DNA of 64,000 bases from an uncultured bacterium (lineage in GTDB: Bacteria > Patescibacteriota > Minisyncoccia > UBA6257 > 2-01-FULL-56-20). The notes under the pieces are model-generated. The model did not search any database, was not told where the DNA came from, and was given only the letters and a program-made list of their open reading frames with translations. The translations under genes were made by a program, and so were the position numbers. Positions 3,318 to 50,223 of this stretch are shown here, piece after piece. The stretch lies in contig CAWJQC010000004.1 of assembly GCA_963844965.1 (NCBI GenBank), forward strand, positions 152,489-216,488, given 5' to 3'. The first letter of the stretch is position 1; each line of letters starts with the position of its first letter.

Positions 3318-3416
3318 AGATAAATTATAGCAGATAATGAATGGTTCCGGGCCCCGCGTGGCGGCATTTGAGCATAAGCCGGCGACGGGTTAAAATGATT
3401 GATATAAGAAAGAGAG

Positions 3417-4130
3417 ATGCAAAAAATCCTGACGGTTAAAGATCTCAGCGTGAGCTTCGGCGAACAGAACGTGCTCGCCAATTTAAATTTTGACCTGGAC
3501 AAAGGCGAAAATCTGGCGGTCATCGGACCGAACGGCGCGGGAAAAACCGTGCTCCTGCGGGCGCTTTTGAACATGATCCCGTACAACGGCGAAATCTCCT
3601 GGGAGACGGGAATACGCCTAGGCTACGTGCCGCAAAAGATAGAGGCCGACCGACACCTACCCATCAATCTGAAAAATCTTCTCGCGGCTAAAGCAAGTGT
3701 TCTTGGCCTGCCGAAATCGGATATAAAAACGGTGGTTGAAGCGACGAAGCTGACCGAAAAAATAATGACGACGCCCATCGGCCACCTCTCCGGCGGACAA
3801 TTTCAGCTGGCGCTCATCGCCTTCGCGCTTCTCGGCCGCCCCGACGTGATACTTCTTGACGAGCCGACCGCGAGCATTGACCAGCTCGGCGAAGAACAGG
3901 TGTACGAACTGATACACGAGCTTCAGGACAAATACGGCATCACCGTCATGCTCGTCACGCACGATCTGCATTTCGTGAACCATTACGCAACGAAAGTTTT
4001 GTGCATCAACAAAGCCGGCCTTTGTTACGGCACTCCCGAAGAAGCATTGACGCCGGAAATTTTGCACAAGCTCTACGGCGAACAGCACAAATACTACCAC
4101 CACATGCATCACCACGAACACGGCCAGTAA
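3417..4130 (+). CDS. Metal (Zn/Mn-type) ABC transporter ATP-binding protein with a His-rich C-terminal tail
   Basis: Walker A GPNGAGKT, ABC signature LSGGQ, Walker B ILLDEPT. C-terminus HHMHHHEHGQ. Confidence 0.8.
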   Translation: MQKILTVKDLSVSFGEQNVLANLNFDLDKGENLAVIGPNGAGKTVLLRALLNMIPYNGEISWETGIRLGYVPQKIEADRHLPINLKNLLAAKASVLGLPKSDIKTVVEATKLTEKIMTTPIGHLSGGQFQLALIAFALLGRPDVILLDEPTASIDQLGEEQVYELIHELQDKYGITVMLVTHDLHFVNHYATKVLCINKAGLCYGTPEEALTPEILHKLYGEQHKYYHHMHHHEHGQ

Positions 4131-4985: not shown

Positions 4986-5402
4986 TCAATTATGGGCGGA
5001 TTCGGAAAGATAACCGCACAGCGTCTCGTGGATCTCGCCCGCCATCCTCCGTAAAAGTTCCCGGCGCTTCCAGAAAGAATTGTTCTCGGAGACCTCTTTG
5101 TTCCGGATCAGGCCGAGCTCGCGGATAGCCACATAACGATCGTGCCCAAGATCGTCCGTGGTGCGGATATCTATATCTTCAATCCCCTGATAGACCTGCT
5201 TCATAATGAAATATTTGGGAGAGAGCTCGGATGCCCGGCTACCCCTTTTCGCGCCTTTGAAAAAGACCGCAAACGACGGCGTGGATTCTATATATTGGAC
5301 GAAATCGTGGAGTGAGACGAAAAAAGGAAAGCTCGCGGGAGTTTCACGGACAATTTTGAGTTTTTGATCAAGAACCAGCCTGACTTTTTCCGTTGTTGTC
5401 AT
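4986..5402 (-). CDS. Hypothetical protein
   Basis: 138-aa ORF with no motif I can name. Confidence 0.35.
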   Translation of the reverse strand: MTTTEKVRLVLDQKLKIVRETPASFPFFVSLHDFVQYIESTPSFAVFFKGAKRGSRASELSPKYFIMKQVYQGIEDIDIRTTDDLGHDRYVAIRELGLIRNKEVSENNSFWKRRELLRRMAGEIHETLCGYLSESAHN

Positions 5403-5703
5403 TTACCTTATTCTACCACGCCCGCGGTAAAATAGCCATATTCTGCGGGATGTCTTTGCCCGTTTCTTTGTTTTAACAAAGAAGTGCGGGCTTTGGAAAA
5501 TTAACGCGGGGGGCGGGTTAGTGAATAACGATAGAACCTGTTTTGTGCAAAAAATCCAGCATTTTCAGGTGCCGAGTTGTTCATGATCAAGAAATGTTGA
5601 AGAAAAAATGTTCCAGCGGCCGGAGGATGTAGAACTTCCTGCCTTGGTTACTAGGCAGGAGAGAACCAGTTTATACCAGTTTATATAAGTAAACACACTT
5701 GTA

Positions 5704-29948: not shown

Positions 29949-31789
29949 TTATTTCTTCAAAATCTCCCGGAACACCTCCGGCGACAGCTCCACCTTAGCC
30001 ATACTCTGCAATTTCTCCTTACCGCGCCGCTGTTTCTTCCAAAGTTTCATCTTGCGCGTCCTATCGCCGCCGGTCTTGCCGAAATTGCCGAGCAATTTTT
30101 TCATCGCCGGGATCGTTTCACGGGCTATTATTCTCCCCTGCGCCCGTGCCTGGATCGCCTGCACGAACTGCTCCTTGGGCAAAAGATTTTTCAGTCGCTC
30201 AACCGTTGCGCGCCCTTCACGCTCCAGGTCTTTCTTGGGCACGATGCGCGTCAAAGCCGGCACGACATCGCCCACAATTAAAATCTCCAATTTCTCCACG
30301 TCCGCTTCTTCCTCGCCGGCTAATTCATAGTTGAAAGAGGCATAACCCGCGGAAACCGATTTCAACCTATCGTCAAAATCGCGGATAAGTTCGGCAAGTG
30401 GCATCCGGCCGACCAGAAGCAGGTTCTCGCCCATATTTTGGATTTCCGAGATTTCCAGATCAAAAACCATTTTCAGGTTCATGATCTGGTTCAGGTATGT
30501 CTGCGGCGTGAGTATTTCCACTTTAATCATCGGCTGCCAAACCTTCTCCGGCTTATCCGGAAACGCATGCGCCTCTTTAGCAATGAACTCGCGCGAGCCG
30601 TCCTTGATGTGATAGGCGATGGACGGAAAGCTCGTCAAAAAATCCAGATTGAATTCCCGTTGCAGCCGGCTCGCCGTAATCTCAAAATGCAACTGGCCGA
30701 GAAATCCCACTTTCAATCCTCTCCCCAGCGCTTCGTTCGCGTCGGGCTCAAAGCTCAAAGCGGCATCGGTTAGGCGCAAGCGCTCAAGCCCTTTTTTTAA
30801 ATCCTCAAACTTAGTAGCGCCATCGGGATAAAACGAAATAAAAACCACCGGTGCCGGCTCACGGTAGCCGGGAAGCGGTTTCGCTGACGCATCCGGTTTT
30901 GTGACCGTATCGCCGATTTTGATGAGCGCCGGCTCTTTGAGACCAGTCGCAATATAGCCCATACCGCCGGCGGAAATTTTATCCTCCGGCTTCAATTCCG
31001 GCGCGAAACAGCCGGTTTCTTTTATCTTTACTTTCGTTCCCTGGGCGAGCAGTTTTATTTCCTCGCCGCTTCGGAATTCGCCGCTGAACACACGGATGAA
31101 CGCGAGTATTCCCTTGTGGTCATCGTAAAGCGAATCGAAAATGAGTGCGCTCGCTTCGGCATGGAAAATTTCTTTCGGGGGCGGAACTCGCGAATTACCG
31201 CTTCCAAAAGTTCTTTCGCTCCTTCGCCGGTTTTTGCCGAAACCTTGAAAATTTCCCCTTCGTCGACGCCCAAGAGCTCGGCGGTCGCTTTTACGATTTT
31301 ATTCAAATGCGGCAGCTGTAAATCAATCTTGTTCACCGCGCCGATGATTTTGAGCCCGGTCTTGCGCGCCGCGCGGAGATTGGATAAGGTCTGCGCCTGG
31401 ATCCCTTTCGTGCCGTCAACCAAAAGTATCGCGCCCTCAACCGCCGCAAGCGCGCGGGAAACCTCATAAGAGAAATCGGAATGTCCCGGCGTATCTATCA
31501 AATTAAGAATGTATTCTGAATTTGAATTTTTAATTTTCAATTTTGCAATTTCCAAATTGTTTGAAAATTGAGAATTAGAAATTGAAAATTGCGGATGGTA
31601 CGCCATCCGGACGGGCGCCATTTTGATGGTTATCCCCCGCTCGCGTTCAAGTTCCATCTTGTCCAAATACTGCGGCACCATATGCCGCGCGTCCACCGTG
31701 CCCGTGAGTTCCAAAAAACGGTCGGCAAGAGTGGACTTGCCGGAATCGATATGAGCGATAATAACAAAATTTCTGATGTTCTCTTCCAT
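29949..31789 (-). CDS. lepA: Elongation factor 4 (LepA), split by a single frameshift in a G5/C5 homopolymer near 31185-31189
   Basis: The N-terminal GTPase (IIAHIDSGKSTLADR, DTPGH, NKID) is in ORF 31055-31855. The C-terminal LepA domains are in ORF 29949-31091. The frames join at tttcgggggcgg. Confidence 0.85.
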
Positions 31790-37378: not shown

Positions 37379-38326
37379 CTATTTATAATACGCCCTGTTC
37401 TCCACGCGGAAATCAATGTAATCCAGATTATTGAATCCCGGTTTTGACATCAGATCTCTGATAACGGCGAGATCGTTCGCGGCCGAAAAACGCAGGCTGA
37501 AATAAAGTTCCGGGCCGTCATACGTCAGAACCGTAACCTCCTCGTTGGTAAGGTTATTCAGGCGAATTTCCTCAATGTTCAAACCGCTTGATTTCAGCGT
37601 CTCAAAAACCGAGAACGCGTTAGAGATGAATTCCTGCGGCAGAATTGACGAACCCAATCCGATATTCTTCTGCGAATAATCGTCAACCGTCGTTATCAAA
37701 CTTCCTTCGGCCGCAAGCGCGCGCTTGAAAAGAACGCCGTCCTCGTCAAACCACCAACACGACGCGGACAGCTGCGGACCCGCCTGCGCCGACGCTTCGG
37801 CGGGCAGGCTTGACGCTGACAGTTGCTGACCCTCTGTCGTTGTCTGCGTTTCATCCGCCACTGTCCGCGTCTCTTCCGCGTCTGTCTGCGTTCCGTCGGC
37901 GTCTGTCTGCGGTTCCCGAAGGCACCAGATGCCATACGGCTTGCGTTCCTCAACATTCACGGAGACGGTCGCGGAGCGATAGCCCTTCTCGATCGTGAGG
38001 CTTTTTATTTCCGGAATGAACGCCAAATCCGCCGCTGAAAGTTCTTTCGGCCACGCGAGGATATTGTCGAATCCGAGAAGCGCTTTCCATAAATCATGGC
38101 CGCGGAGCACGCTGGACTGGAGGAGCGCCACAATGGTGCTGGAAGATACCGCGCTATTTCCTTCCACGGAGACGGTTTTAACGCGCAGCCACGGCGAACG
38201 AAGCACAAACCACGCGGCGCCGACGAGAAGAATGTAGACGACGAGGCAGGCGAGGAGAATGAAAAAGTACCGCCGCCGCTTCTTGCGCTTTTTCTGCTTC
38301 TCGGGAAGATATGAATCAAACTCCAT
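37379..38326 (-). CDS. ftsQ: Cell division protein FtsQ/DivIB (POTRA) with an acidic Thr/Asp/Glu-rich repeat insertion
   Basis: Basic N-terminus plus TM, POTRA-like region (LRVKTVSVEGNSAVSSSTI), insertion TDADGTQTDAEETRTVADETQTTTEGQQ encoded by gtctgcgt-type DNA repeats. Confidence 0.65.
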   Translation of the reverse strand: MEFDSYLPEKQKKRKKRRRYFFILLACLVVYILLVGAAWFVLRSPWLRVKTVSVEGNSAVSSSTIVALLQSSVLRGHDLWKALLGFDNILAWPKELSAADLAFIPEIKSLTIEKGYRSATVSVNVEERKPYGIWCLREPQTDADGTQTDAEETRTVADETQTTTEGQQLSASSLPAEASAQAGPQLSASCWWFDEDGVLFKRALAAEGSLITTVDDYSQKNIGLGSSILPQEFISNAFSVFETLKSSGLNIEEIRLNNLTNEEVTVLTYDGPELYFSLRFSAANDLAVIRDLMSKPGFNNLDYIDFRVENRAYYK

Positions 38327-38364
38327 ATTCCTATATAAACATATATAATGATAATAACAACTCT

Positions 38365-39615
38365 ATGAGGGCGCTATTCCGTAAAATCAGGGACTCAAGG
38401 TTCCGCCACGAAACCCTAATCACGATATTCATCCATCGCGAGCGGATTTTGCATAATCTCCTGCAATTCCAGAAGATGAACCCGGATGTCAATGTCGCCC
38501 CGGTGCTCAAAAGCAACGCCTACGGCCACGGCCTTGTCCATGTTGCGCACATACTAATGGGCCAATCGCTTCCCTTCCTCTGCGTGGACTCATATGTTGA
38601 GGCGCTCATCCTCCGCAACGAGGGCATCCACACGCCGCTCGTCATTCTCGGCTACACGCCGCTTGAAAATATTGAGCGGAGCAGATTGAAAAACGTGTCG
38701 TTCAGCATAACGAGCATGGAAGAACTGCGGCGGCTGGACTCCAGATGCCGCCTGCCCGCGCAGGCAGGCAAGAACGTCGCCATTCATCTCAAAATTGACA
38801 CCGGCATGCACCGGCAGGGCATTTTTCCCGAAGAGCTCACAGAAGCGCTCGGCATCATGGCGCAAAGCAAAAAAATTGTTTTGGACGGCGCCTATTCTCA
38901 CCTCGCGGATGCCGATACCCCAAAATCCGCGCTCACAAAAAAACAAATCGGGCGGTGGAACGCCGCCGCGCACGAAATCAGAGAAAAAATTCCAAGCGTG
39001 CGCTACTTCCACCTGGCGAACACCGCCGGCAGCCGCTATTCAAAAGAAATTGACGCGAACGTAATGCGCCTTGGCATCGGCTTATATGGGATAGACCCCC
39101 ACACCAAACGAGGATATGCGCCTTCGACGCAGAATTCAGTAAATCCTCGTTCTGGTGTGGGGGTAAATCTCCTGCCCGCCCTAGAAATGAAAACTCGCAT
39201 AACCTCCGTGCGGAAAATCGCGGCTGGCGAAAGCGTTGGCTACAACGCGACATTTACCGCCAAACGCGAAATGATAATCGCCACGATTCCCGTCGGCTAC
39301 GCCGAAGGCCTTGACCGCCGGCTCTCAAACCCCCGCACCAGAACGGCGAGTTTATCTACACAGGACACGCGCTCGCCGTTTGGTGTGGGGGTCAAGAACA
39401 TAATTTGTCCCGTTGTCGGCCGCGTCAATATGAACATAACTTCCATTGACATCTCACGAGTTCCCGATCCAAAAATTGACGACGAGGTCCTGGTCGTGAG
39501 CGCCGACCGCGGTGCGCCGAACTCAATAGAAAATATGGCGAAGCTCTGCGGGACGATTCCCTACGAATTTCTTATCCGCCTCCCCGCGCAGATACGGAGG
39601 GTCGTTTGTCCATAG
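38365..39615 (+). CDS. alr: Alanine racemase, carrying two short insertions that share a GVGV motif
   Basis: PLP-binding APVLKSNAYGHG. C-terminal VGYAEGLDRR … GRVNMN. Insertions at ~39115-39180 and ~39335-39405 share ggtgtgggggt[ac]aa. Confidence 0.8.
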   Translation: MRALFRKIRDSRFRHETLITIFIHRERILHNLLQFQKMNPDVNVAPVLKSNAYGHGLVHVAHILMGQSLPFLCVDSYVEALILRNEGIHTPLVILGYTPLENIERSRLKNVSFSITSMEELRRLDSRCRLPAQAGKNVAIHLKIDTGMHRQGIFPEELTEALGIMAQSKKIVLDGAYSHLADADTPKSALTKKQIGRWNAAAHEIREKIPSVRYFHLANTAGSRYSKEIDANVMRLGIGLYGIDPHTKRGYAPSTQNSVNPRSGVGVNLLPALEMKTRITSVRKIAAGESVGYNATFTAKREMIIATIPVGYAEGLDRRLSNPRTRTASLSTQDTRSPFGVGVKNIICPVVGRVNMNITSIDISRVPDPKIDDEVLVVSADRGAPNSIENMAKLCGTIPYEFLIRLPAQIRRVVCP

Positions 39616-39630
39616 AAAATTGTTAGCGCG

Positions 39631-40573
39631 CTAATCCACAAATAATTTCTTTTTCAGTTTATGCGTATTGCCGTGACCAAGTAGCCCAAGGTACGACGCC
39701 CTCGTTTCTTCCGAAGGACCCCTGCTTAATCTTTTTATCATTCGCCGTTTCGTCGCGCTACGTAGTACGCGATGGTCTGGAAAATGAACCCAGCCGAGGA
39801 AATCGACGCCGGAAGCCAAGGTTTTTATAAAAACTTTCTGCGGATGCAGGCGCAAACGCAAGCGGTTCTCAAGAAAATTCCGAATTTTCGTGATTTGCGA
39901 TTCCAGCCAGGTACGGTCGGAGGAAAGAAAAACGAAGTCGTCGGCATAGCGGATGTAATATTCTGCTTTTAATTTGTGTTTTGCAAACTGGTCAAACTCA
40001 TTCATATAGACATTCACGAAAAGTTGCGAAGTCAGATTGCCGAGCGGCAGGCCTATGCCGGGCCTGCCGGAAGAAAAACTGCCTATAATTTCCCGGAGCA
40101 ACCAAAGAACATCGCCATCCGGTATGTAGGAAGAAAGAATCTCGAGCAAAATTGTGTGGTCGATGTTCGCGAAAAACTTCTTGATATCGCATTTCAGGAC
40201 CCAACAGGTTCTGGTATTGTCTGGCGCCGGACTTGCGTGCGAACGAACGGAAGCGGTCAAGTGCGGCGTGCGTGCCCTTGCCAACGCGGCAAGAAAACGA
40301 ATCGGCTATAAACGTCCGGTCAAAAAATGGGCGGAGGAGGCCGCAGATGGCATGGTGCAGAAAACGGTCGCGCACGCTCGCCTTATGGATATTCCTCGGC
40401 TTCGGGTCGCAGATATTGAACGCTTGATATCCGCCGTGGCGGTAGGTATGATTTATCAAATCGGCGCGGAGGGCGAAAAGATTGTCCATTAGACAGAACT
40501 GTAATTCCCGGACATCACGCTTGCCGCGCTTTCCTTTCAAAAACTCCGGCCAAGTTTCCAAAAAATTTTCCAT
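39631..40573 (-). CDS. Diversity-generating retroelement (DGR) reverse transcriptase, interrupted by one frameshift near 40215-40250
   Basis: N-terminus MENFLETWPEFLKGKRGKR…FNICDPKPRNIHKASVRDRFLHHAI…CRVGKGTHAALDRF. Motifs VLKCDIKKFFANIDH, GLPLGNLTSQLF (the DGR-diagnostic LGxxxSQ), YIRYADDFVF, HPQKVFIKTLASGVDFLGW. Confidence 0.85.
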
Positions 40574-40613
40574 TCCGGCGATTTTTTCCAAGCCGCCGCC
40601 AAATTGAGCTTTC

Positions 40614-40997
40614 ATGGACAAAAATTCACACGTAACCCCCCGACGGAGTAGCTTACCCATCATTCAACATCTTATCGCTACGTACAAACTTTGGCACGAA
40701 TTTTTGCCGCACGTACCGAAAGACGCCCGCTACACGTTGGGAAGCAAAATTGACGTCTCGCTCATAGAAACGATTGAGGCCGTTTTTTCGGCGAGCTATC
40801 TCGGCGGCGAGAAAAAATTACCGTATCTGCAAAGAGCCGCAGCCAAACTGGACCTTGTCAAATTCTTTCTGCAAACTCTCTGGGAAATCGGGGCGCTGGA
40901 CAATAAAAAGTACATAGTGCTTTCCGAAAAATTTGACGGGGTCGGAAAAATGCTCGGCGGCTGGTTGCGGCAATCTCAAAAACAAACTCCGGCTTGA
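40614..40997 (+). CDS. avd: DGR accessory variability determinant (Avd, four-helix-bundle family), divergent from the RT
   Basis: 127 aa. YKLWHEFLPHVPKDARYTLGSKIDVSLIETIEAV … AKLDLVKFFLQTLWEI … VGKMLGGWLRQ matches the bAvd/TIGR02436 pattern. Confidence 0.7.
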   Translation: MDKNSHVTPRRSSLPIIQHLIATYKLWHEFLPHVPKDARYTLGSKIDVSLIETIEAVFSASYLGGEKKLPYLQRAAAKLDLVKFFLQTLWEIGALDNKKYIVLSEKFDGVGKMLGGWLRQSQKQTPA

Positions 40998-41017
40998 TGC
41001 CGGAGAAATAAAGTGAT

Positions 41018-41145
41018 TTGCAGAAGGCGAGGAACCACCAGTTGTCGTTCCACCTGTTGCCCCAGTAGTTGAGGTTCAGCTTGCGGTTCGAGGCATTGCC
41101 GTTCAGGTACGCCACGTTGCGATTGTCGTTCGGGATCCTGCCAGG
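41018..41145 (-). repeat. DGR template repeat (TR)
   Basis: ~128 bp homologous to the VR at 41523-41649. 13 mismatches, all at TR adenines on the coding (minus) strand. The TR translation is Asn-rich (NDNRNVAYLNGNASNRKLNLNYWGNRWNDNWW). Confidence 0.9.
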
Positions 41146-41414
41146 AAATATGCGGAATATCATCCGTACCACCGCCCGTTGAATAATCTCCGGGTTGAAT
41201 CGTATTCGGGATCTCCTCCGGTTGTGATCGGAGTAATCCGCCAACATCCCGCACCAAGTAGCTTTATTTTTTGAAATTCACGGCCGCGCTGGAGACAAGC
41301 GTGCCCGTCTCCATTCCGGGCGCGTAAATTCCGGAATTCGGCCGTTCGAAGCCGTAGCCGCGGACAGTGTCGCCTACTATCCAAATTAATTCTACTACCT
41401 ATTCAAAAACAAAT

Positions 41415-41460
41415 CCCCCACGCAAACATATGCTGGCGCATATACTCACGTGGGGGGTAA
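41415..41460 (-). terminator. Nested-hairpin terminator downstream of the DGR target gene (cccccacg…cgtggggg + T-run on the minus strand)
   Basis: 8-bp outer stem and inner atatgc/gcatat stem, followed by atttgttttt in minus-strand sense. Confidence 0.5.
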
Positions 41461-41518
41461 AACAAAACTCAAGTGCCCAAGGGACAAAAAGTTCAAATGT
41501 CCCAAGTGCAAAGTACTG

Positions 41519-42139
41519 CTACTTGCAGAAGGCGAGGAACCACCAGTCGTCGTGCCACCTGCCGCCCCAGTAGTTGAGGTCCAGCTCGCGGCTCGAGGCA
41601 CGGCCGTACAGGTACGCCACGCCGCGATCGTCGTTCGGGTCCTGCCAGGAATCGCCGAGGGCGGCTAACGGAAAATGGGCAGCCAGTTCGGCCGAATCGG
41701 GATTGGATTTAGAGAGATCCGCAAGTTCTTTCGGAATACCCGGTCGCAGACCCATCTTGTCCAGGCGAACGGCGGCGTCGTCGGACTCAACATACTCGCC
41801 GAAATTCACGAGAACCGCTTCGGCTTCAACCCGGCCCTTGCCGACAACTTTCTTGAAATTCTTGTCGGTCAGATTGGAGTTGACGTAGTTGAATCCGCTC
41901 GCCGTCTTGGCTTCGAGCGGCTCGTCATTGTTAATAATGACATGGAACACCGCGCGCTTCACGCGACCGACAATTTCCGCGACAAGGTCAACGATTTTGC
42001 CGAAGAGCGGACTCCCATCCTTCAACGCGTCGTAAAACTGTTCGTCGGATAAGCCGCGCTCCTGGCGCGCCCTATCCAAAGCGACCCAGAAACTCGCCGC
42101 AAATCCTGCTCCGCTTACCACCGTAGATGGTTTTGACAT
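41519..42139 (-). CDS. DGR target protein (variable protein) with a C-terminal variable region
   Basis: ~205 aa ending …DPNDDRGVAYLYGRASSRELDLNYWGGRWHDDWWFLAFCK. The last 40 codons form the VR. Confidence 0.8.
   Translation of the reverse strand: MSKPSTVVSGAGFAASFWVALDRARQERGLSDEQFYDALKDGSPLFGKIVDLVAEIVGRVKRAVFHVIINNDEPLEAKTASGFNYVNSNLTDKNFKKVVGKGRVEAEAVLVNFGEYVESDDAAVRLDKMGLRPGIPKELADLSKSNPDSAELAAHFPLAALGDSWQDPNDDRGVAYLYGRASSRELDLNYWGGRWHDDWWFLAFCK
41523..41649 (-). repeat. DGR variable repeat (VR) at the 3' end of the target gene
   Basis: See TR. A 25-nt 3'-terminal block (ttgcagaaggcgaggaaccaccagt on the plus strand) is identical to the TR, consistent with an IMH-like region. Confidence 0.9.
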
Positions 42140-42471
42140 GGCACTTCTCCTTTGGCGGCACACCCCTCGTTCCGGCAAATCGTGCTGTCGGAATCCCAGA
42201 TGAACCGCATGGTTACAGCTTTCAGCGCATATTGCCCCTCACGCGCTAAAAGCTGTAACCATTGCACAAGTAGTCATATTTTCAAGGTACGCCTTAATTA
42301 TACACCCAAACACTTATTGTGTCAAGAGCGCGTTTTGGGAACGACAGCAAGCCGCGCGTAATCCCAACCCCCGCCAAGCACAGCCACCAATTCACACCCC
42401 AACCCTCCTCAATTTCGCTTTCCTCCCGAACCCCGGTAGTAGAGCAAAGCTCACCACCGGGCTACGCACTT

Positions 42472-43269
42472 TTATAAATTGACCTTCTTCAGTACCGCAT
42501 TGCTACCGAACCAGCGGCGCGTAATTTCTACATACGCCGGCGTGATGTCCGTAACGAGCAATTCCTTTCTGCCTTTTTTGCTCAAGCGCGAGTCAATTTC
42601 CGGATGGCGCTTTAGATAATCTTTCAATTTGCGCGGGATTAGCTCGTCCTGCGAAACAACCGGTACGCCGGAAATCCTTTTTATCATGGATTTCAACGCC
42701 GGATAATGAGTACAGCCCAAAATTATTTTTTCAACTTTTTTCCGCTTTAGGGGTGCGAGATACACGCGCACGAACGGCTCCGCCCGGCGCAATTCGTCAT
42801 TCTCAATTAAGGGGACGAGCATCGGCGCCGCGTTCTCGTAAACCTTCACGCGCGGATTGAGTTTCTTCGCCTCGCGCACATAGGTGCCGGAATTGACAGT
42901 CCCCTGCGTGGCAAGCACACCGATTCGTTTTGTTTTTGGGTCTTTCAATGCTTCTTCCGCCGTCGGAATAATCACGCCGAGAACCCTGCGCTTCGGATAA
43001 TGGCGCGGAAGATACTGCCGCTGAATTTTTCGGAGCGCTTCCGCGGACGCCGTATTGCAAGCAACAACAATAAGCCCGCAATCTTTTCTGAATAGATATT
43101 CCACCGCCTCTTCCAAAAATTGATAAACCGTTCGCGGAGAGCGATTTCCATACGGCACGCGCGCGGTGTCGCCGAGATAAACGTAATCGTAGCGTGGAAG
43201 CTCGCGGGCCAGTGCCCGCATAACGAACAACCCGCCAAGCCCCGAATCAAATACGCCGATTTTCATCAT
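42472..43269 (-). CDS. murI: Glutamate racemase
   Basis: IGVFDSGLGGL, VVACNTAS, ILGCTHYP motifs. Confidence 0.85.
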   Translation of the reverse strand: MMKIGVFDSGLGGLFVMRALARELPRYDYVYLGDTARVPYGNRSPRTVYQFLEEAVEYLFRKDCGLIVVACNTASAEALRKIQRQYLPRHYPKRRVLGVIIPTAEEALKDPKTKRIGVLATQGTVNSGTYVREAKKLNPRVKVYENAAPMLVPLIENDELRRAEPFVRVYLAPLKRKKVEKIILGCTHYPALKSMIKRISGVPVVSQDELIPRKLKDYLKRHPEIDSRLSKKGRKELLVTDITPAYVEITRRWFGSNAVLKKVNL

Positions 43270-43345
43270 AGCGCGGAATTACGCGGACCAAACGCGGAAA
43301 TTCGCAGAAAATTATTTATATAACGACTCGCTCTTACTCTCATAT

Positions 43346-43366
43346 TTTCCTATTCGCGCGAATTAG
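43346..43366. promoter_or_regulatory. Operator-like palindrome attcgcgcgaat (second copy of the ArsR-box), ~80 bp upstream of murI and overlapping the arsR stop
   Basis: tattcgcgcgaattagaaa, near-identical to the 43646-43663 site. Confidence 0.4.
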
Positions 43367-43625
43367 AAATGGTAAGGATCAGCAATTTGACGACAGGAGG
43401 TAGCGGACTGGCCAAACGATAATAAACCGTCAAACTTTCCTGGCGGCGGTCTAAAATGTCCAGCTGGCGCAAGATGCCAAGATGCTTAGAGGTGGCGGTG
43501 AACGAAAGATTAATACCCCGGGCAATATCGGCCACCGAAACCTCTTTCTTCCTACCAAGAAGCCGGATAATTGCCAGTCGCCGCCGATTGGCTAACCCTT
43601 TAAAAATTTTCTCCAGCTGTTTCAT
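43350..43625 (-). CDS. ArsR/SmtB-family HTH transcriptional regulator
   Basis: 91 aa. LANRRRLAIIRLL…VSVADIARGINLSFTATSKHLGIL. Confidence 0.7.
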   Translation of the reverse strand: MKQLEKIFKGLANRRRLAIIRLLGRKKEVSVADIARGINLSFTATSKHLGILRQLDILDRRQESLTVYYRLASPLPPVVKLLILTISNSRE

Positions 43626-43645
43626 CTTTCCATCTTATCACTATT

Positions 43646-43663
43646 TTCTAATTCGCGCGAATT
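43646..43663. promoter_or_regulatory. Perfect 18-bp palindrome ctaattcgcgcgaattag, 21 bp upstream of the arsR-family gene. Putative autoregulatory operator.
   Basis: Perfect dyad read from the sequence. Confidence 0.5.
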
Positions 43664-43680
43664 AGAAAATGTAACAATCT

Positions 43681-45691: not shown

Positions 45692-46705
45692 GTGAAAATT
45701 TTTAACGTCGGCGAGCTGATGTTCCAGCATATGGAAAGCATCGGTATCAACCTGAACAGGAAAAATATCCATCAGGTTTCGCCGCTCACGCGGCAGGTGG
45801 CAAGATCGGCAGTGCTCAAGGGCATCCTGGGTGAAATAACCTACGACTCGGGCAAATACGACGCCGTCGTAATCAACATCCACGCGCACTTTTACTGGGA
45901 CGACGTGTTAACCGAAGCATACGACACGTATCTCAATAATTTCCTGCGAGCAGAATGGAATCCACTCCTTGTGACTTTTATCAACGACTTCAGGCCGATA
46001 CTGCAACACCTCAAATCACGCGAACAGTGGAGGAATCAAAAACTGGATGCCCAAACCATCCTCAACTGGCAAAACAGCGAGGTCATGACAACGTCCATGC
46101 TCGCCAAGTTCGCCGGTAGGCAATTTGCTCCTGTCGCCACGACGCAATCGCCGGCGGAATTGTTCTATCCTCTGGTTTTTCATCCGGAGATCGAAACGGC
46201 TTATATTGCCACACCCATCTCGCACCTACGCGACGTGGAAGCCAGAAAACCGGTGGACGAGTTCATAGAAAAACTCCGTAAACTGCGACTGTTCGCGCTT
46301 TTCAACCCACTTTCCGTGGAAGTCGTCGGCGCCGTTCACTTCGACAAACACGAATCGACCGACGAAGATATACTCGTCTATCACCACATTGTGAACCGCG
46401 ATCTTTACTGGTTCGTGCGGAATAGCCAAAAGATAATCGTCTACTGGCCGAGGATCGCCGTGCCGAGAGAGGTTGAAGAAAATCCTGAGCTTTTCAAACG
46501 CTGGCCGGAAAGCGTGGCATCCCCCGGCGTTGACCACGAAACTCACGAGGGGTATGGCGAAGGAAAAGATGTCTGGGTGGTGTTCTGCGGCGATAAGACC
46601 AGCCCGTTCCTCGTCAAATACCGCACCGAGTTGTTCCTAGGAGAAGAGGAATTCTTCGGGTTCCTCAAAGAAAGATATCCCGACAGGAAGAACCTTGTCT
46701 GGTGA
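45692..46705 (+). CDS. Hypothetical protein
   Basis: 337-aa ORF with no recognisable motif. Confidence 0.4.
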   Translation: MKIFNVGELMFQHMESIGINLNRKNIHQVSPLTRQVARSAVLKGILGEITYDSGKYDAVVINIHAHFYWDDVLTEAYDTYLNNFLRAEWNPLLVTFINDFRPILQHLKSREQWRNQKLDAQTILNWQNSEVMTTSMLAKFAGRQFAPVATTQSPAELFYPLVFHPEIETAYIATPISHLRDVEARKPVDEFIEKLRKLRLFALFNPLSVEVVGAVHFDKHESTDEDILVYHHIVNRDLYWFVRNSQKIIVYWPRIAVPREVEENPELFKRWPESVASPGVDHETHEGYGEGKDVWVVFCGDKTSPFLVKYRTELFLGEEEFFGFLKERYPDRKNLVW

Positions 46706-46802
46706 TTCCCGCACCCCCGCGCACGCGCACGGGGGCTTTTGTTCCCCAAAAAGCCGGGGGCAAGCTTGTCAAACCGCCGCCTCCGCGTTTATAATATTAA
46801 AA

Positions 46803-47824
46803 ATGCCCGCCAAACAAGAAGTTTCTAAAATTGAAAACATCCGCCACTCTCTGTCCCATCTCCTTGCCGCCGCCGTCCTCAAGAAATTTCCGGATGCGAA
46901 GCTCGGCATCGGTCCGGTCATTGAGAACGGTTTCTATTATGATTTCCTCCTGCCGAGCCTGCCTGACGGCAGTCAGGGACACTTCGCGCCTGACGACCTC
47001 AAGGAACTTGAACGAACCATGCGGCAGCTCATAGCACAAAATTTGCCGTTCAGCGGCGAAAAACTGACGCCCGCCGCCGCCAAAAAACTTTTCAAAGACC
47101 AGCCATTCAAACTTGACCTCATCAAAGAATTCACCAAAGCAAAAGAACCGCTTTCAATCTACAAGACCGGCGACGCTTTTTTTGACCTTTGCAGTGGCGG
47201 TCACGTGGACAGCACTAAAGAAATAAATCCCGACGCCTTCAAGCTTGACCGGCTTGCCGGAGCCTACTGGCGCAGCGACGAAAAAAATCCGCAACTGCAA
47301 CGAATTTATGGCTTGGCGTTTGAAACGAAAGAGGAATTGGAAAAATACTTGAAGCTTGTTGAAGAAGCGCAAAAACGCGACCACAGAAAACTGGGTAAAC
47401 GTCTTGACTTGTTTACTTTTTCAGATATGGTCGGCAGCGGTCTCCCGCTTTGGACACCGAGAGGAGCTCTGGTCCGGGGATTGTTGAATGAATATGTAGA
47501 ATCGCTACAAGCAAAAGCCGGATATACCCAAGTTTGGACGCCGCAGATCGCGAAAGCGGAACTTTTCAAAACATCCGGCCACTACGATAAATACCGGGAA
47601 AGCATGTTCCGCGTAAAATCAAATTACTCCGACGAGGAATCTTTCTGAAACCCATGAATTGCCCCCAGCACACGCAGATCTATGCAAGCCAGCCGCGGAG
47701 CTACCGCGACTTGCCGCTGCGTTATACCGACTTCGCGATGCTCTACCGCGACGAAAAACCCGGCGAACTGAATGGCCTCGCGCGCGTCAGATCGTTCTCC
47801 CAGGATGACTGCCATATTTTCTGC
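46803..47824 (+). CDS. thrS: Threonyl-tRNA synthetase, N-terminal ~55% only. It has a frameshift near 47640-47655 and ends abruptly at the QDDCHIFC motif.
   Basis: TGS/second-additional-domain region, then [28 protein letters not shown]…[14 protein letters not shown] in a second frame. No continuation beyond 47824. Confidence 0.8.
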
Positions 47825-47829
47825 CACGG

Positions 47830-50223
47830 CCTTATTACGTCATGGAACTGGTGCGCGGCATCAAAATCACGGATTACTGTGACCAGAACAATCTTTCCAC
47901 GCGGGAACGGCTGGACCTGTTCATTCAAGTTTGCCAGGCCATCCAGCACGCGCACCAGAAAGGCGTCATCCATCGCGACATCAAGCCGTCGAATATCCTC
48001 GTCACTGTGAACGACGGCGTGCCCGTGCCCAAGGTCATTGACTTCGGCATCGCCAGGGCGACACAGGGACGGCTCACCGACAAAACTTTGTTCACCGCGT
48101 TCGAGCAATTCATCGGCACACCCGCCTACATGAGTCCCGAACAGGCGGTATTGACCAGTCTGGACATTGATACGCGCAGCGACATCTACAGCCTGGGCGT
48201 TCTGCTCTATGAATTGCTCACCGGCAAAACCCCCTTCGATGCGAATACCTTGCTTCAATCCGGGCTGGACTCGATGCGCCGCACGATTCGGGAAGTTGAA
48301 CCGCCGAAACCTTCAGCGCGGTTGAGCACGATGCTGGATGCCGAACGGGCGACCACGGCCAGCCACCGCCAGACGGAACCGCCCAAACTGATTCATCTGG
48401 TTCGCGGAGACCTGGACTGGATCGTGATGAAGTGCCTGGAGAAGGACCGCGGGCGGCGCTACGAGACGGCGAACGCCGTGGCGATGGACCTCCGGCGGCA
48501 TTTGAGTTGCGAACCGGTGCTCGCTTGTCCGCCCAGCCGGCTTTATGAGTTTCAAAAGACGGTCCGCCGCCACAAATTCGGCTTCGCGGCGGCGGCGGCA
48601 CTCATCACAGTGCTCGCGATCGGCGTGCTGGTGAGCTGGTCGGAAATGATACGGTCGCGGCGCGCGGAGCGGGAGCAAGCGCGTCTGCGCCAGCAAGCCC
48701 AGACCGAAGCGGCCAAGAGCCAGCAGGTGGCGCAGTTCCTCAAGGACATGCTCAACGGCGTCGGACCGAGCGTGGCGTTGGGTCGCGACACGACAATGCT
48801 GCGGGAGATTCTGGACAAGACCGCCGAGCGGGTGGGTAAAGACTTGAAAGACCAGCCGGATGTGGAAGCCAATCTGTGGAACACTCTCGGCGACGTTTAC
48901 TTGGATCTCGGCGAATATCAGAAAGCGGAAGCGATGCAGCGCGCGGGGTTGGCGATACGAATGAAACTGTTCGGCCACGAGAATTTGTACGTCGCCGTGT
49001 CGCTCTGGGGCTTGGCCGACGCGCTTCGGCGCAAAGGCAGCTTTGCCGAGTCGGAAACTTTGCTTCGTGATTCGCTAACGATTTTTAGAAAGCTGCGCGG
49101 TGATGAGAATCGGGACGTGGCCGCAGAGCTCTCCATGCTGGCCGACGTGCTCCGCTATGAAGGCAAGCTGGACGAGGCGGAGCCGATGCAACGGCAGGCG
49201 TTGTCCCTGAACAGGAAACTGTTCGGCAACAAAGATATAATGGTGGGTATTTCACTCAACAACCTGGCGCTGGTGCTCCGGTGGCAGGGCAAGTTCTCTG
49301 AAGCGGAAACGATGTTTCGCGAAGCGCTGGCGATATACAAAAAAGTGTTGGGCGACGAGGATCCAGAGATCGCCATTACCCTCGACAATCTGGCCAACGT
49401 GCTCCTCGACCAAGGCAGACTGACCGAGGCCGAAGCCACGTGTCGAGAGACGTTGGCAATGCGGAGAAAACTGCTGGGCAACGATCATCCAAAGGTGGCC
49501 GAGTCACTCAACAAACTGGCTTGGGTGCTTCAAAGGCAAGGCAAGCTGGCTGAAGCGGAAACGATGGTTCGCGAGGCGCTGGCGATGCTAAGAAAGTCGC
49601 AGGCCCGTGAGACTCCTGAGGCAGCCGACTTGCTCGGCAACCTGGCTTACCTTCTCCAAAGTGAGGGTAAGCTGAATGAGGCCGAAACCATGCAGCGCGA
49701 GGCGTTGATGATACAGAGAAGATTGCAGGGTGACGAGGGCCTGCGGGTGGGCGATTCGCTCGCCCAACTGACAGCCATCCTGCTTGACGAAAACAAATTT
49801 TCAGACGCCGAGCCGCCGGCTCGCGAGTGTCTGACCATAAGAGAGAAGATGATTCCTGATCTCTGGTGGACTTTCAACAGTCGTAGCCTGCTGGGCGGCA
49901 GTCTCCTGGGGCAGAAGAAATACGCGGAGGCCGAGCCGTTGCTCCTCTCCGGCTATGAGGGCATGAAACAACGCGAGGACAGGATTCCAGCGTATGGCAA
50001 GTTTCAACTGAAAAAGGCCCTTCAGCGCCTGGTGCAACTCTACGAAGCCACGGACCGACCCGATCAAGCCGCCCAATGGAAGCAGAAGCTGGCGGAGTTC
50101 GACAAGGCCGAAACCGGGAAGAAGGCCGACGCGCCCCAATCGCAGGCTGACGCCATCACTCCCGTCCTTCTGCCTGAAGCCAAAGCGCTGATCGAAGGTG
50201 AGGGCGCAGTCACCAGAAAGTAG
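47830..50223 (+). CDS. Ser/Thr protein kinase with the N-terminal lobe missing (starts at subdomain V), followed by a TM segment and a long TPR-repeat domain
   Basis: [15 protein letters not shown], catalytic loop [47 protein letters not shown], then at least 8 TPR-like repeats. Confidence 0.8.

Follow-up and report, generated by a model that had tools for sequence, protein, structure and literature searches.

The locus between alr and murI in the 64,000-nucleotide stretch of DNA that was analysed, hereafter the window, is very probably a chromosomal diversity-generating retroelement (DGR) of the Patescibacteria (CPR) clade with a B3 architecture, working by the mechanism proposed below. In a DGR, a reverse transcriptase (RT) serves to rewrite the end of a single small binding protein. 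The DGR described here is of the standard CPR type, which thousands of Patescibacteria genomes carry, and is an ordinary further example of a very large catalogued class. We present the evidence for this assignment, together with two family-wide features, a structured RNA domain upstream of the TR and a periodic array downstream of the VR, that bear on how such elements might work.

TR and VR differ only at template adenines

Re-alignment of the repeat pair, with the minus strand as the coding strand, showed that the TR core (41018-41134) and the VR core (41523-41639) align over 117 nt without a gap, with 89% identity and 13 mismatches. As the sequence-only reading had claimed, all 13 fall on a coding-strand A (plus-strand T) of the TR. 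With 31 adenines among the 117 nt of the TR core, the hypergeometric probability of such a result is 3.3e-9, and none of the 19 coding-strand T sites in the TR is changed, which makes the bias strand-specific. The changes from TR to VR comprise 10 A>G, 2 A>C, and 1 A>T. They touch 10 codons, chiefly AAC with some AAT and AAG, and lie at codon positions 1-2 in every case; the VR residues at these codons are D, G, Y, R, S, E, D, G, H, and D. The mismatches lie at TR positions 41043, 41049, 41057-58, 41076, 41082, 41087, 41096-97, 41103, 41117-18, and 41124. Most of these positions had been given correctly, but the pairs 41057-58 and 41117-18 had each been placed off by one; similarly, D, G, Y, S, and H had been listed rightly among the VR residues, while the L that was also listed does not occur and R and E do.

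Both repeats extend beyond these cores on the minus strand. The TR (41018..41147) carries at 41135 an extra base that is absent from the VR (41523..41651), and beyond it the 12 nt of TR 41136-47 are identical to VR 41640-51. Stretching the alignment to ~129 nt hence requires a 1-nt gap, which the lengths reported earlier (~128 bp, with 128 for the TR and 127 for the VR) had implied without stating it. Over these 129 nt, there are no non-adenine substitutions, so that mismatches away from adenine, which would have spoken against a DGR, were excluded by re-alignment. If copied into the VR, the extra base would frameshift the target. At the other end of the repeat, we confirmed a GC-rich IMH-like block of 25 nt (VR 41523..41547, minus strand) that is identical in the TR (41018-41042), i.e., IMH and IMH* show no difference. 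There is no second VR within the 64-kb window, and a metagenome scan with every TR adenine set to N found the same VR on no other contig.

The VR lies at the end of a small protein with a predicted C-type-lectin-like domain

The VR occupies the last 39-43 codons of the target (variable protein) gene (41519..42139, minus strand). This intact ORF of 206 aa plus stop starts with the ATG at 42139, is preceded by the RBS AAAGGAGAA, and ends in WWFLAFCK, in good agreement with the ~205-aa protein with this ending described from the sequence. Upstream of the gene, a consensus scan picked out a promoter-like site (42297..42325, minus strand), which is a 12/12 pattern match to TTGACA-17-TATAAT.

The target protein is helical in its N-terminal part and continues into a C-type-lectin-like (CLec) domain of ~145 residues at the C terminus, of which the VR is the end. 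The domain is predicted to have a CLec/FGE-like fold, the fold for which the sequence-only reading had suggested a check. The predicted model, made from 12 sequences, is indeed CLec-like, but the C-type-lectin matches that Foldseek found in the PDB are not significant (E ~0.1 or higher). In the alignment of target homologs, variable columns alternate with conserved ones. Searches of Pfam, NCBIfam, and PDB profiles returned nothing meaningful for the target, and an exact look-up found no other copy of the protein. A target-based locus search of GTDB genomes gave 25 pattern matches, 0 of which were confirmed. Related loci were gathered by RT alignment instead of by target pattern, and the comparison set comprises 80 of them.

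The RT belongs to a large clade but its frame is interrupted

The RT gene (39631..40615, minus strand) encodes LGNLTSQ (40024-40044, minus strand), the motif-4 [I/L/V]GxxxSQ that the sequence-only reading had pointed out, as well as YADD (39937-39948, minus strand), which corresponds to YxDD. The protein matches Pfam RVT_1, and its best solved-structure match is bRT (8ub7_A, E 5e-44), with the motif aligned. The gene is nevertheless in two frames owing to a 1-nt insertion within 40216-40237, a stretch of 22 nt here vs. 21 nt in homologs. The earlier label "complete" thus finds no support in the element as assembled, since the RT frame is broken and the TR is 1 nt longer than the VR. With its frame repaired, the RT shares 65-73% identity with thousands of intact Patescibacteria RTs, each ~330 aa long. 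Its clade comprises no fewer than 8000 protein clusters and is represented in at least 595 GTDB species genomes. A consensus scan found no consensus promoter for the RT gene, the mRNA of which would be antisense to avd. Programmed frameshifting was considered and rejected since the shift is missing from all aligned homologs and there is no slippery or stop context. Because the RT frame is interrupted as assembled, present-day activity of this DGR is putative only.

This interruption could mean that the element is a recently inactivated relic, in which the RT is a pseudogene, the TR has suffered a 1-nt insertion, and the VR is frozen in its last diversified state. Such a reading would account for two single-base indels within ~1 kb of the cassette. 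It also fits with the ~600 related RT genes, each of which is one unbroken segment in tblastn, and with the database, where no intact protein is identical to the RT found here and the best is 73% identical. However, TR and VR differ at no non-adenine site in 129 nt, both avd and the target ORF are uninterrupted, and the RNA domain described below scores 89.8 bits, which is within the family range. Moreover, the window contains a highly conserved lepA that is frameshifted (31163-31187), although it shares 92% identity with a relative in its C-terminal part, and a thrS that is truncated and fused to a truncated kinase (junction at ~47830), defects that point to assembly errors. Because of these two genes, an assembly error is as likely as decay, and we rejected the view that the RT frameshift proves the element dead. 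Since the repeat, avd, the target ORF, and the RNA domain are all preserved, any decay would have to be very recent. We thus view inactivation as a serious possibility but a rather doubtful one.

A conserved structured RNA is encoded upstream of the TR

The 377-nt interval between VR and TR carries a promoter motif and a conserved structured RNA of ~235 nt that adjoins the TR. Since a promoter and a covariation-supported RNA are encoded there, this spacer is not junk. The putative promoter of the DGR RNA comprises a -10-like TAGAAT (41389..41394, minus strand), for which the alignment gives the family consensus TTTnTGnTAnAAT. It is followed by the structured 5' part of the DGR (TR) RNA (41148..41382, minus strand), with a three-helix junction abutting the TR. 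On the same strand, this domain contains 1) two hairpins with CGGYUACGGYUU loops (41342-41365 and 41291-41312), 2) a primer-like strand AAAUAAAG (41262-41269), and 3) ~1 nt after it, an almost invariant ACUUGG (41254-41259). Analysis by RNAalifold revealed compensatory changes in 19/21 pairs in the 3' half of the domain and in 19/19 pairs in the 5' half. A covariance model, R1, has a single match in the window (41140-41265, minus strand), which is the 89.8-bit match mentioned above, and it matched 27 loci outside its seed with E values of 1e-12 to 1e-22. In contrast, Rfam 15, which includes the RT-1 to RT-19 motifs, gave no match in the window at gathering thresholds, and its matches in 40900-41560 are at chance level (E ≥ 0.47).

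On the other side of the TR, the linker strand CUUUAUUU (41006..41013, minus strand), which starts 4 nt past the end of the TR-VR homology, pairs with AAAUAAAG. This helix scores higher for strands from the same locus than for mismatched-locus pairings (Mann-Whitney P 2.6e-8), shows many compensatory variants, and has a geometry that is conserved across loci. A terminator-like hairpin, CTCCGGC-ATCAA-GCCGGAG followed by UUUGUUUUUG (40977..41005, minus strand), lies 12 nt after the TR, across the stop codon of avd, which is encoded on the opposite strand. It is kept in 53/58 loci vs. 20% of control windows, and its stems covary. The counterpart of this hairpin in Handa et al. (bioRxiv 10.1101/2023.10.23.563531) is a putative Avd-binding stem-loop.

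Could the upstream RNA be an independent cis-regulatory leader or small RNA, separate from the template RNA? Its transcript ends are predicted ones, which leaves some room for this idea. Yet the domain lies ~5 nt from the TR, 28/29 of the R1 matches are on the RT strand only and precede an RT gene by a fixed distance (the exception is locus L059), no other match is found in 327 kb, and one strand of the domain covaries with the linker that follows the TR. A separate RNA is therefore quite improbable.

A periodic array and a hairpin follow the VR

Immediately after the VR, we identified an array of six ~8-nt units, GTACTTTG CACTTGGG ACATTTGA ACTTTTTG TCCCTTGG GCACTTGA (41468..41516, minus strand). 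Across 58 loci, the stretch after the VR has 3.4 copies of the motif CTT[TAG]?G per 90 nt, compared to 0.56 in the background and 0.41 after the TR. Its spacing after the VR has a mode of 7-8 nt, and autocorrelation across loci shows peaks at lags of 8, 16, and 24 after the VR only. The array was not called by Tandem Repeats Finder, and a motif-density scan is moderately specific, with 25 matches at VR ends and 45 elsewhere (~0.9 Mb, both strands). An intrinsic-terminator-like hairpin of 19 pairs with a T-tract (41405..41456, minus strand), the putative end of the target transcript, sits 60-100 nt downstream of the VR, and analogous hairpins are found after the arrays in relatives. Because IMH and IMH* are identical, discrimination between donor and recipient would have to lie downstream of the VR. 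Pairing of the RNA motif ACUUGG with the complement of the array found no support, since loci with AAUUGG or AGUUGG keep their CTTKG arrays.

The layout is that of B3 DGRs

The accessory gene avd (40614..40997, plus strand) is intact, encodes 127 aa, and lies on the strand opposite to TR, RT, and target. Its assignment, already proposed from the sequence, is upheld by a match to PF22296 (bAvd) with 46 bits (E 8e-12), above the cut-off of 40, while the match to NF033474 (DivGenRetAVD), with 66 bits, is below the equivalog cut-off of 80. The element thus consists of the target gene with the VR, a non-coding DGR RNA gene with the TR, avd on the reverse strand, and the RT gene. It is flanked by alr and murI, both of which we found where the sequence-only reading had placed them; that reading had missed both the opposite orientation of avd and the structured RNA in the VR-TR interval. 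The same layout is shared with 57 related loci, where the VR-TR spacing has a median of ~340 nt, and the divergent avd-RT pair is likewise present in relatives.

In the B3 architecture, which accounts for 90% of CPR DGRs, the order is TR-(avd)-RT with avd reversed (Wu et al. 2018, PMC5758913). The locus has precisely this order, with TR at 41147..41018 (minus strand), avd at 40614-40997 (plus strand), and RT at 40615..39631 (minus strand). The DGRs of CPR clade 2 are cellular and have targets without known domains (Roux et al. 2021, PMC8144416). The notion that the TR is an ordinary duplicated gene fragment, i.e., a decayed paralog of the 3' end of the target with an adenine bias due to chance or mutation, is supported by the existence of a repeat and nothing else, and it is effectively refuted by the adenine statistics (P = 3e-9, with a strand-specific bias) and by the DGR context, in which the repeat adjoins a DGR-clade RT and Avd at a fixed position that matches 57 related cassettes.

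Proposed mechanism

We propose that the locus produces a minus-strand RNA of ~400 nt, which, judging from the conserved promoter and terminator motifs, would extend from ~41385 to the hairpin/U-tract at ~40977. Covariation shows that the 5' 235 nt of this RNA fold into a conserved multi-helix domain and that the AAAUAAAG strand of this domain pairs with the linker 4 nt past the TR-VR homology. If the bRT-Avd-RNA complex of the Bordetella phage is a guide, the RT and an Avd pentamer would bind the RNA, and the long-range helix would act as a template:primer (or stop) duplex setting the TR 3' end in the active site. Synthesis of cDNA would then be cis-primed and proceed through the TR, with misincorporation opposite adenines. 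The outcome is visible in the sequence, where the VR differs from the TR at template adenines only, namely 13/31 of them, all at codon positions 1-2. In the predicted fold, the 10 recoded residues would be on the C-terminal strands of the C-type-lectin-like domain, with the scaffold L.G.A..R.L.L...W...WWFLAF.K intact. Finally, the cDNA would replace the VR, with directionality probably conferred by DNA that is found downstream of the VR only, i.e., the array with its 8-nt period and the strong hairpin.

A more general and much more tentative idea is that CPR (B3) DGRs use a rearranged template RNA, with a 5' binding/priming domain of ~235 nt, a AAAUAAAG primer, and array-based targeting. The RT/Avd-binding and cis-priming elements, which are in the 3' spacer in the Bordetella phage, would here be 5' of the TR. 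The primer would be the A-rich conserved segment before ACUUGG, paired to the post-TR linker in a retron-like topology, and target recognition would occur via the 8-nt-periodic CTTKG array after the VR and not via an IMH-adjacent cruciform.

Comparison with known systems

When compared to DGR variable proteins whose CLec folds have been solved (TvpA 2Y3C, Mtd, and the archaeal AvpA) and to minimal CLec domains of bacteria (the C-terminal domains of Bd2740, 8OKS, and Lcl, 8Q4E), the target shows no detectable sequence similarity. Its domain is small, with ~145 residues, and its likeness to these proteins comes from the model of 12 sequences, with Foldseek E values of ~0.1 or higher. The DGR RNA has a topology similar to that of retron msr-msd RNA, where the template is preceded by structured RNA, one strand of which forms a helix with the sequence directly 3' of the template, beside a conserved unpaired motif. 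This is a resemblance only because the RT here is of the DGR clade and the template is a protein-coding repeat.

The closest systems are other CPR DGRs (the "CPR set" of Paul et al. 2017; B3, PMC5758913; and clade 2, PMC8144416), which have the same TR-(avd)-RT order with the target immediately upstream. They are likewise chromosomal, with an AAC-rich TR, an RT that is 65-73% identical to clade members, and a small target in which neither a known domain nor a transmembrane segment is recognised. There is no essential difference, except that the copy described here has a broken RT frame and an extra TR base. The locus is one more CPR DGR diversifying a small putative ligand-binding protein, which leaves existing knowledge unchanged. 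Both the structured RNA domain 5' of the TR and the 8-nt array after the VR are family-wide among related CPR loci. We found no description of them in the literature searched, although an earlier description is possible. With the covariance model of the upstream RNA, TRs in CPR genomes and the strand they lie on can be recognised sharply and independently of the RT.

The locus shares with BPP-1 (mtd-avd-TR-brt; 8UB7-8UBE) 1) an RT with [I/L]GxxxSQ and YxDD, Avd, and adenine-specific differences, 2) a VR at the C terminus of a protein with a CLec fold, which is a predicted fold here, and 3) a stem-loop directly after the TR and a duplex joining sequences up- and downstream of the TR. In BPP-1 RNA (avd segment-TR-Sp), a 3' spacer of ~140 nt carries the primer, the stop duplex, and RT-binding elements (10.1101/2023.10.23.563531). 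Here, the TR is followed by a 12-nt linker, the hairpin, and a U-tract (~40 nt), and then by the convergent avd. Because this reversed avd lies between TR and RT, a ~140-nt Sp after the TR is not possible on the RNA. Instead, the large structured part of the RNA is 5' of the TR, and the upstream strand of the duplex is ~115 nt before the TR rather than within 40 nt. The IMH does not differ from IMH*, and what follows the VR is a direct-repeat array with a hairpin farther away, in place of a GC-rich cruciform next to it. Finally, BPP-1 is phage-borne, whereas the element described here is cellular. The long-range helix, ACUUGG, and the post-VR array would offer mutable handles both on how cDNA is primed with a reversed avd and on how VR and TR are told apart despite their identical IMH and IMH*.

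Adenine-restricted substitutions identify a genuine DGR

A repeat search of the window detected a direct repeat (41018-41134 vs. 41523-41639) with 89% identity, lying between alr (38311-39615) and murI (42472-43269), which is where the sequence-only reading had placed a diversity-generating retroelement (DGR). Since both flanking genes are housekeeping genes, the element is chromosomal. Base-by-base re-alignment showed that the two copies are collinear over 117 nt, with exactly 13 mismatches. The open reading frame (ORF) holding the second copy (variable repeat, VR) is encoded on the minus strand, and on that strand all 13 mismatches correspond to an A in the first copy (template repeat, TR). 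The TR contains 31 A in 117 nt, and 13 mismatches placed at random would be confined to A with a probability of 3.3e-9. The 19 T positions in the TR are all unchanged, showing that the bias is strand specific. The restriction to adenines claimed from the sequence therefore holds, as do most of the coordinates listed for it, two pairs of which were off by one (the correct positions are 41057-58 and 41117-18).

The substitutions (10 A>G, 2 A>C, and 1 A>T) affect codon positions 1-2 in ten codons (AAC, AAT, AAG), which have become D, G, Y, R, S, E, D, G, H, and D in the VR. This list includes the D, G, Y, S, and H that had been read from the sequence but not the L. The final 25 nt are the same in TR and VR, confirming the identical block reported at the VR 3' end, and 12 more nt are identical past 41134, provided one extra TR base is allowed at 41135. 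There is no second VR in the window when both strands are scanned with any base tolerated at template adenines.

The arrangement is widely shared. According to an RT (reverse transcriptase) alignment, a relative is encoded in at least 595 GTDB species genomes, and simple self-BLAST of 80 fetched loci revealed, in 57 of them, a repeat pair with adenine bias in a single stereotyped layout. In these 57 loci, the VR lies ~950-1050 nt and the TR ~400-550 nt upstream of the RT start, with a median VR-TR gap of ~340 nt and with avd (accessory variability determinant) between TR and RT on the opposite strand. Mutated template adenines (999 cases) are replaced in the VR by G (59%), T (24%), or C (17%), so the A>G excess in the window is typical, and non-adenine positions contribute ~7% of all TR-VR mismatches. 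Taken together, these findings show the locus to be a true DGR, a new member of a class that is published and well populated.

The target is a variable protein with a predicted C-type-lectin/FGE-like fold

The most plausible start of the VR-bearing ORF is an ATG at 42139 (minus), preceded by AAAGGAGAA, which yields a 206-aa protein ending in WWFLAFCK, in line with the ~205-aa target described from the sequence. When it was aligned with its 12 close homologs, the last 40 residues were found to alternate invariant scaffold residues with hypervariable columns, which is the DGR pattern. A profile search retrieved 2131 cluster representatives at E<=1e-3, mostly ~150-230 aa and with two copies in some, while no match was found in Pfam, NCBIfam, or PDB sequences. 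An AlphaFold model built from a 12-sequence alignment has a pLDDT of 80.6 and a pTM of 0.75. A Foldseek search of the PDB with this model returned nothing significant, the top rows being collectin C-type lectins. Known structures tabulated against the model were the C-terminal domain of Bd2740 (7.9), SUMF2 (6.6), EgtB (6.4), the C-terminal domain of Lcl (6.4), and TvpA, a DGR variable protein of Treponema (5.4). Support for the C-type-lectin/FGE-like fold that had been proposed for the target C-terminus thus comes from a predicted model.

The target gene is preceded by a perfect TTGACA-17-TATAAT (42297-42325, minus), and the ~150-nt 5' leader contains an inverted repeat (42209-42262, minus; 20-nt arms, 95% complementary, 14-nt loop) that might control the variable protein, either as an operator or as a hairpin in the leader. 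In a syntenic relative (locus L001, GCA_040960625.1), a 228-aa target homolog with 48% identity is encoded at 5001-5687 between DUF4012 and lepA, with no RT called among the genes within 5 kb. The equivalent neighborhood in the window (lepA, DUF4012, and PMT_2, 29.9-36.7 kb) has no target homolog, which indicates that target paralogs move, or exist, without a local DGR.

The cassette is intact apart from two doubtful single-base lesions

The predicted avd (40614-40997, plus) matches bAvd (PF22296, E 8e-12), which substantiates the earlier call, and it scores 66 bits against NCBIfam DivGenRetAVD, which is below the equivalog cut-off of 80. The RT, on the minus strand, occupies two reading frames, with the N-terminal half starting at ATG 40615 and the C-terminal half extending to 39631. 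The joined protein shares 65-73% identity with thousands of intact ~330-aa RTs, whose named sources include Patescibacteria, Parcubacteria, Paceibacterota, and similar. It displays the expected LGxxxSQ motif (as LGNLTSQ) together with YADD, and its best match among solved structures, with the motif aligned, is the 328-residue reverse transcriptase 8ub7_A (E 5e-44), the Bordetella phage bRT. An alignment with nine intact RTs shows 22 nt at 40216-40237 where homologs have 21 nt, and the break is therefore a 1-nt insertion. The element had been called complete, which the assembled sequence does not bear out, since the RT frame is interrupted and the TR carries one base more than the VR.

Although the window contains many long intact ORFs, two other conserved genes are damaged. 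First, lepA (29952-31780, minus) is split between two frames at 31163-31187 by a 1-nt deletion (residues 5-188 of a relative's LepA match frame -1, residues 181-592 frame -3). Its C-terminal part is 92% identical to that LepA and the break adjoins a C-run; this is likely an assembly indel error. Second, a ThrRS-like gene (45692-50223, plus; tRNA_SAD, then class II core) ends inside the core at profile position 73/179 and continues into a Ser/Thr kinase-TPR protein, the kinase domain of which begins at profile position 77; at the junction near 47830, the assembly has either a chimeric join or a deletion. Both defects resemble assembly errors, and on this account the frameshift in RT and the additional TR base may likewise be artefacts, the first lesions of a decaying element being an equally possible origin. 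That the element is a true relic seems doubtful to us because, despite these lesions, TR and VR have zero non-adenine differences and no damage is seen in avd, target, or RNA, so that decay, if there is any, would be very recent. Apart from two single-base lesions, the reality of which is doubtful, the cassette is unremarkable.

The RT and avd starts overlap divergently (CATG at 40613-40616), leaving no intergenic promoter space. No consensus promoter was detected for RT, and for avd a promoter-like site occurs within the coding region of RT (40424-40452, plus). A full-length RT mRNA would run antisense to avd. As for the flanks, alr is ~50-60 aa longer than usual at a region (39085-39402) where four copies of GGTGYGGGGGT or its complement form two nested inverted repeats, which look like small in-frame palindromic insertions. 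Beyond murI, 38-nt repeats with the palindrome TTCTAATTCGCGCGAATTAGAA (43343-43380 and 43642-43679) at both ends of a gene encoding a 91-aa ArsR-type HTH protein are probably operator sites.

The VR-TR interval and the TR flanks contain conserved elements

The VR-TR interval is functional. Directly past the target stop codon, related loci display on the RT strand 50-90 nt of degenerate ~8-nt CTTKG units, with 3.4 motifs per 90 nt after the VR vs. 0.56 in the background and 0.41 after the TR. The modal spacing is 7-8 nt, and the post-VR segment is the only one in which pooled autocorrelation has peaks at lags 8, 15-16, and 23-24. In the window, six units (41516..41468, minus) lie between the target stop codon and a strong terminator-like hairpin (41456..41415, minus) shared by related loci, past which the alignment of these loci reveals a conserved extended -10-like promoter motif on the RT strand, TTTnTGnTAnAAT. 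In the window and the fetched loci L006-L085, the array is conserved across CPR DGRs with differing target families and is absent after the TR. Possible roles are as a signal marking the retrohoming target or as a platform for protein binding.

A structured RNA of ~235 nt (41148-41382, minus), preceded by a promoter-like motif of its own, ends ~5 nt before the TR. RNAalifold on MAFFT alignments predicted 21 pairs in its 3' half, 19 of which show compensatory double changes, and 19 pairs in its 5' half, all with compensatory changes; in the 5' half, two hairpins resemble each other and have CGGYUACGGYUU loops. A covariance model built on the 3' half has one match in the window (41140-41265, minus, 89.8 bits) and matches 27 loci outside the seed (E 1e-12 to 1e-22), at a constant distance from the RT gene and, except in one locus (L059), on the RT strand, with no other matches in the 327 kb searched. 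Rfam 15 has no family matching this RNA. In L059, the RNA domain (2671-2780, minus) and its TR are on the strand opposite to RT, and another locus (L032) has two copies of the domain (1735-1843 and 3370-3475) upstream of a single RT.

Twelve nt after the TR, a hairpin followed by UUUUGUUUU is present in 53/58 loci vs. 20% of control windows, and its stems covary among loci. In the window (41005..40987, minus), it overlies the avd stop codon and resembles an intrinsic terminator. The linker that separates TR from this hairpin pairs with an A-rich strand ~115 nt upstream of the TR, which stops one nt short of a nearly invariant ACUUGG. The 3' strand of this long-range helix mostly begins 3 nt past the point where TR-VR homology ends. 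The two strands commonly read AAAUGAAGA/UCUUCAUUU; in the window they read AAAUAAAG/CUUUAUUU, and elsewhere we found CAUACGA/UCGUAUG, AAAAUAACA/UGUUAUUUU, AGUGAAGAAA/UUUCUUCACU, and more. Strands from the same locus score above different-locus pairings (Mann-Whitney P 2.6e-8). These findings demonstrate a conserved RNA structure and a long-range helix. Covariation gives no support for direct pairing between ACUUGG in the RNA and the array.

Both the RNA domain and the post-VR array belong to the family as a whole, and no description of either was found in the searchable literature, which does not cover the key CPR paper. In the window, the block at the VR 3' end (IMH) and its TR counterpart (IMH*) are identical. 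The array and the downstream hairpin are the only VR-specific conserved features, which makes them candidates for donor/recipient discrimination.

Comparison with known DGRs

The window fits published descriptions of CPR DGRs in every respect: architecture B3, TR-(avd)-RT, makes up 90% of Wu et al.'s CPR set (PMC5758913), and the CPR clade is cellular, with targets without recognizable domains (Roux et al., PMC8144416). In the Bordetella phage DGR, bRT-Avd requires RNA on both sides of the TR, the Avd pentamer binds a stem-loop just 3' of the TR, the template:primer duplex is formed by the TR 3' end and the spacer, and a second duplex by the spacer and sequence upstream of the TR (bioRxiv 10.1101/2023.10.23.563531). 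The same study, which examined only 40 nt upstream of the TR, describes, for other DGRs including CPR ones, putative stem-loops after the TR and putative upstream/downstream duplexes. The post-TR hairpin here fits the Avd-binding stem-loop. B3 cassettes, with avd reversed, have no room for a Bordetella-type ~140-nt spacer after the TR, from which we infer that the remaining RNA functions come from the 5' domain. This domain would supply functions otherwise held by the 3' spacer, and the long-range helix would be a template:primer or stop duplex presenting the TR 3' end to RT. It is conceivable, if rather unlikely, that CPR DGRs use a permuted DGR RNA together with an array-based target signal; such a permuted RNA would be retron-like.
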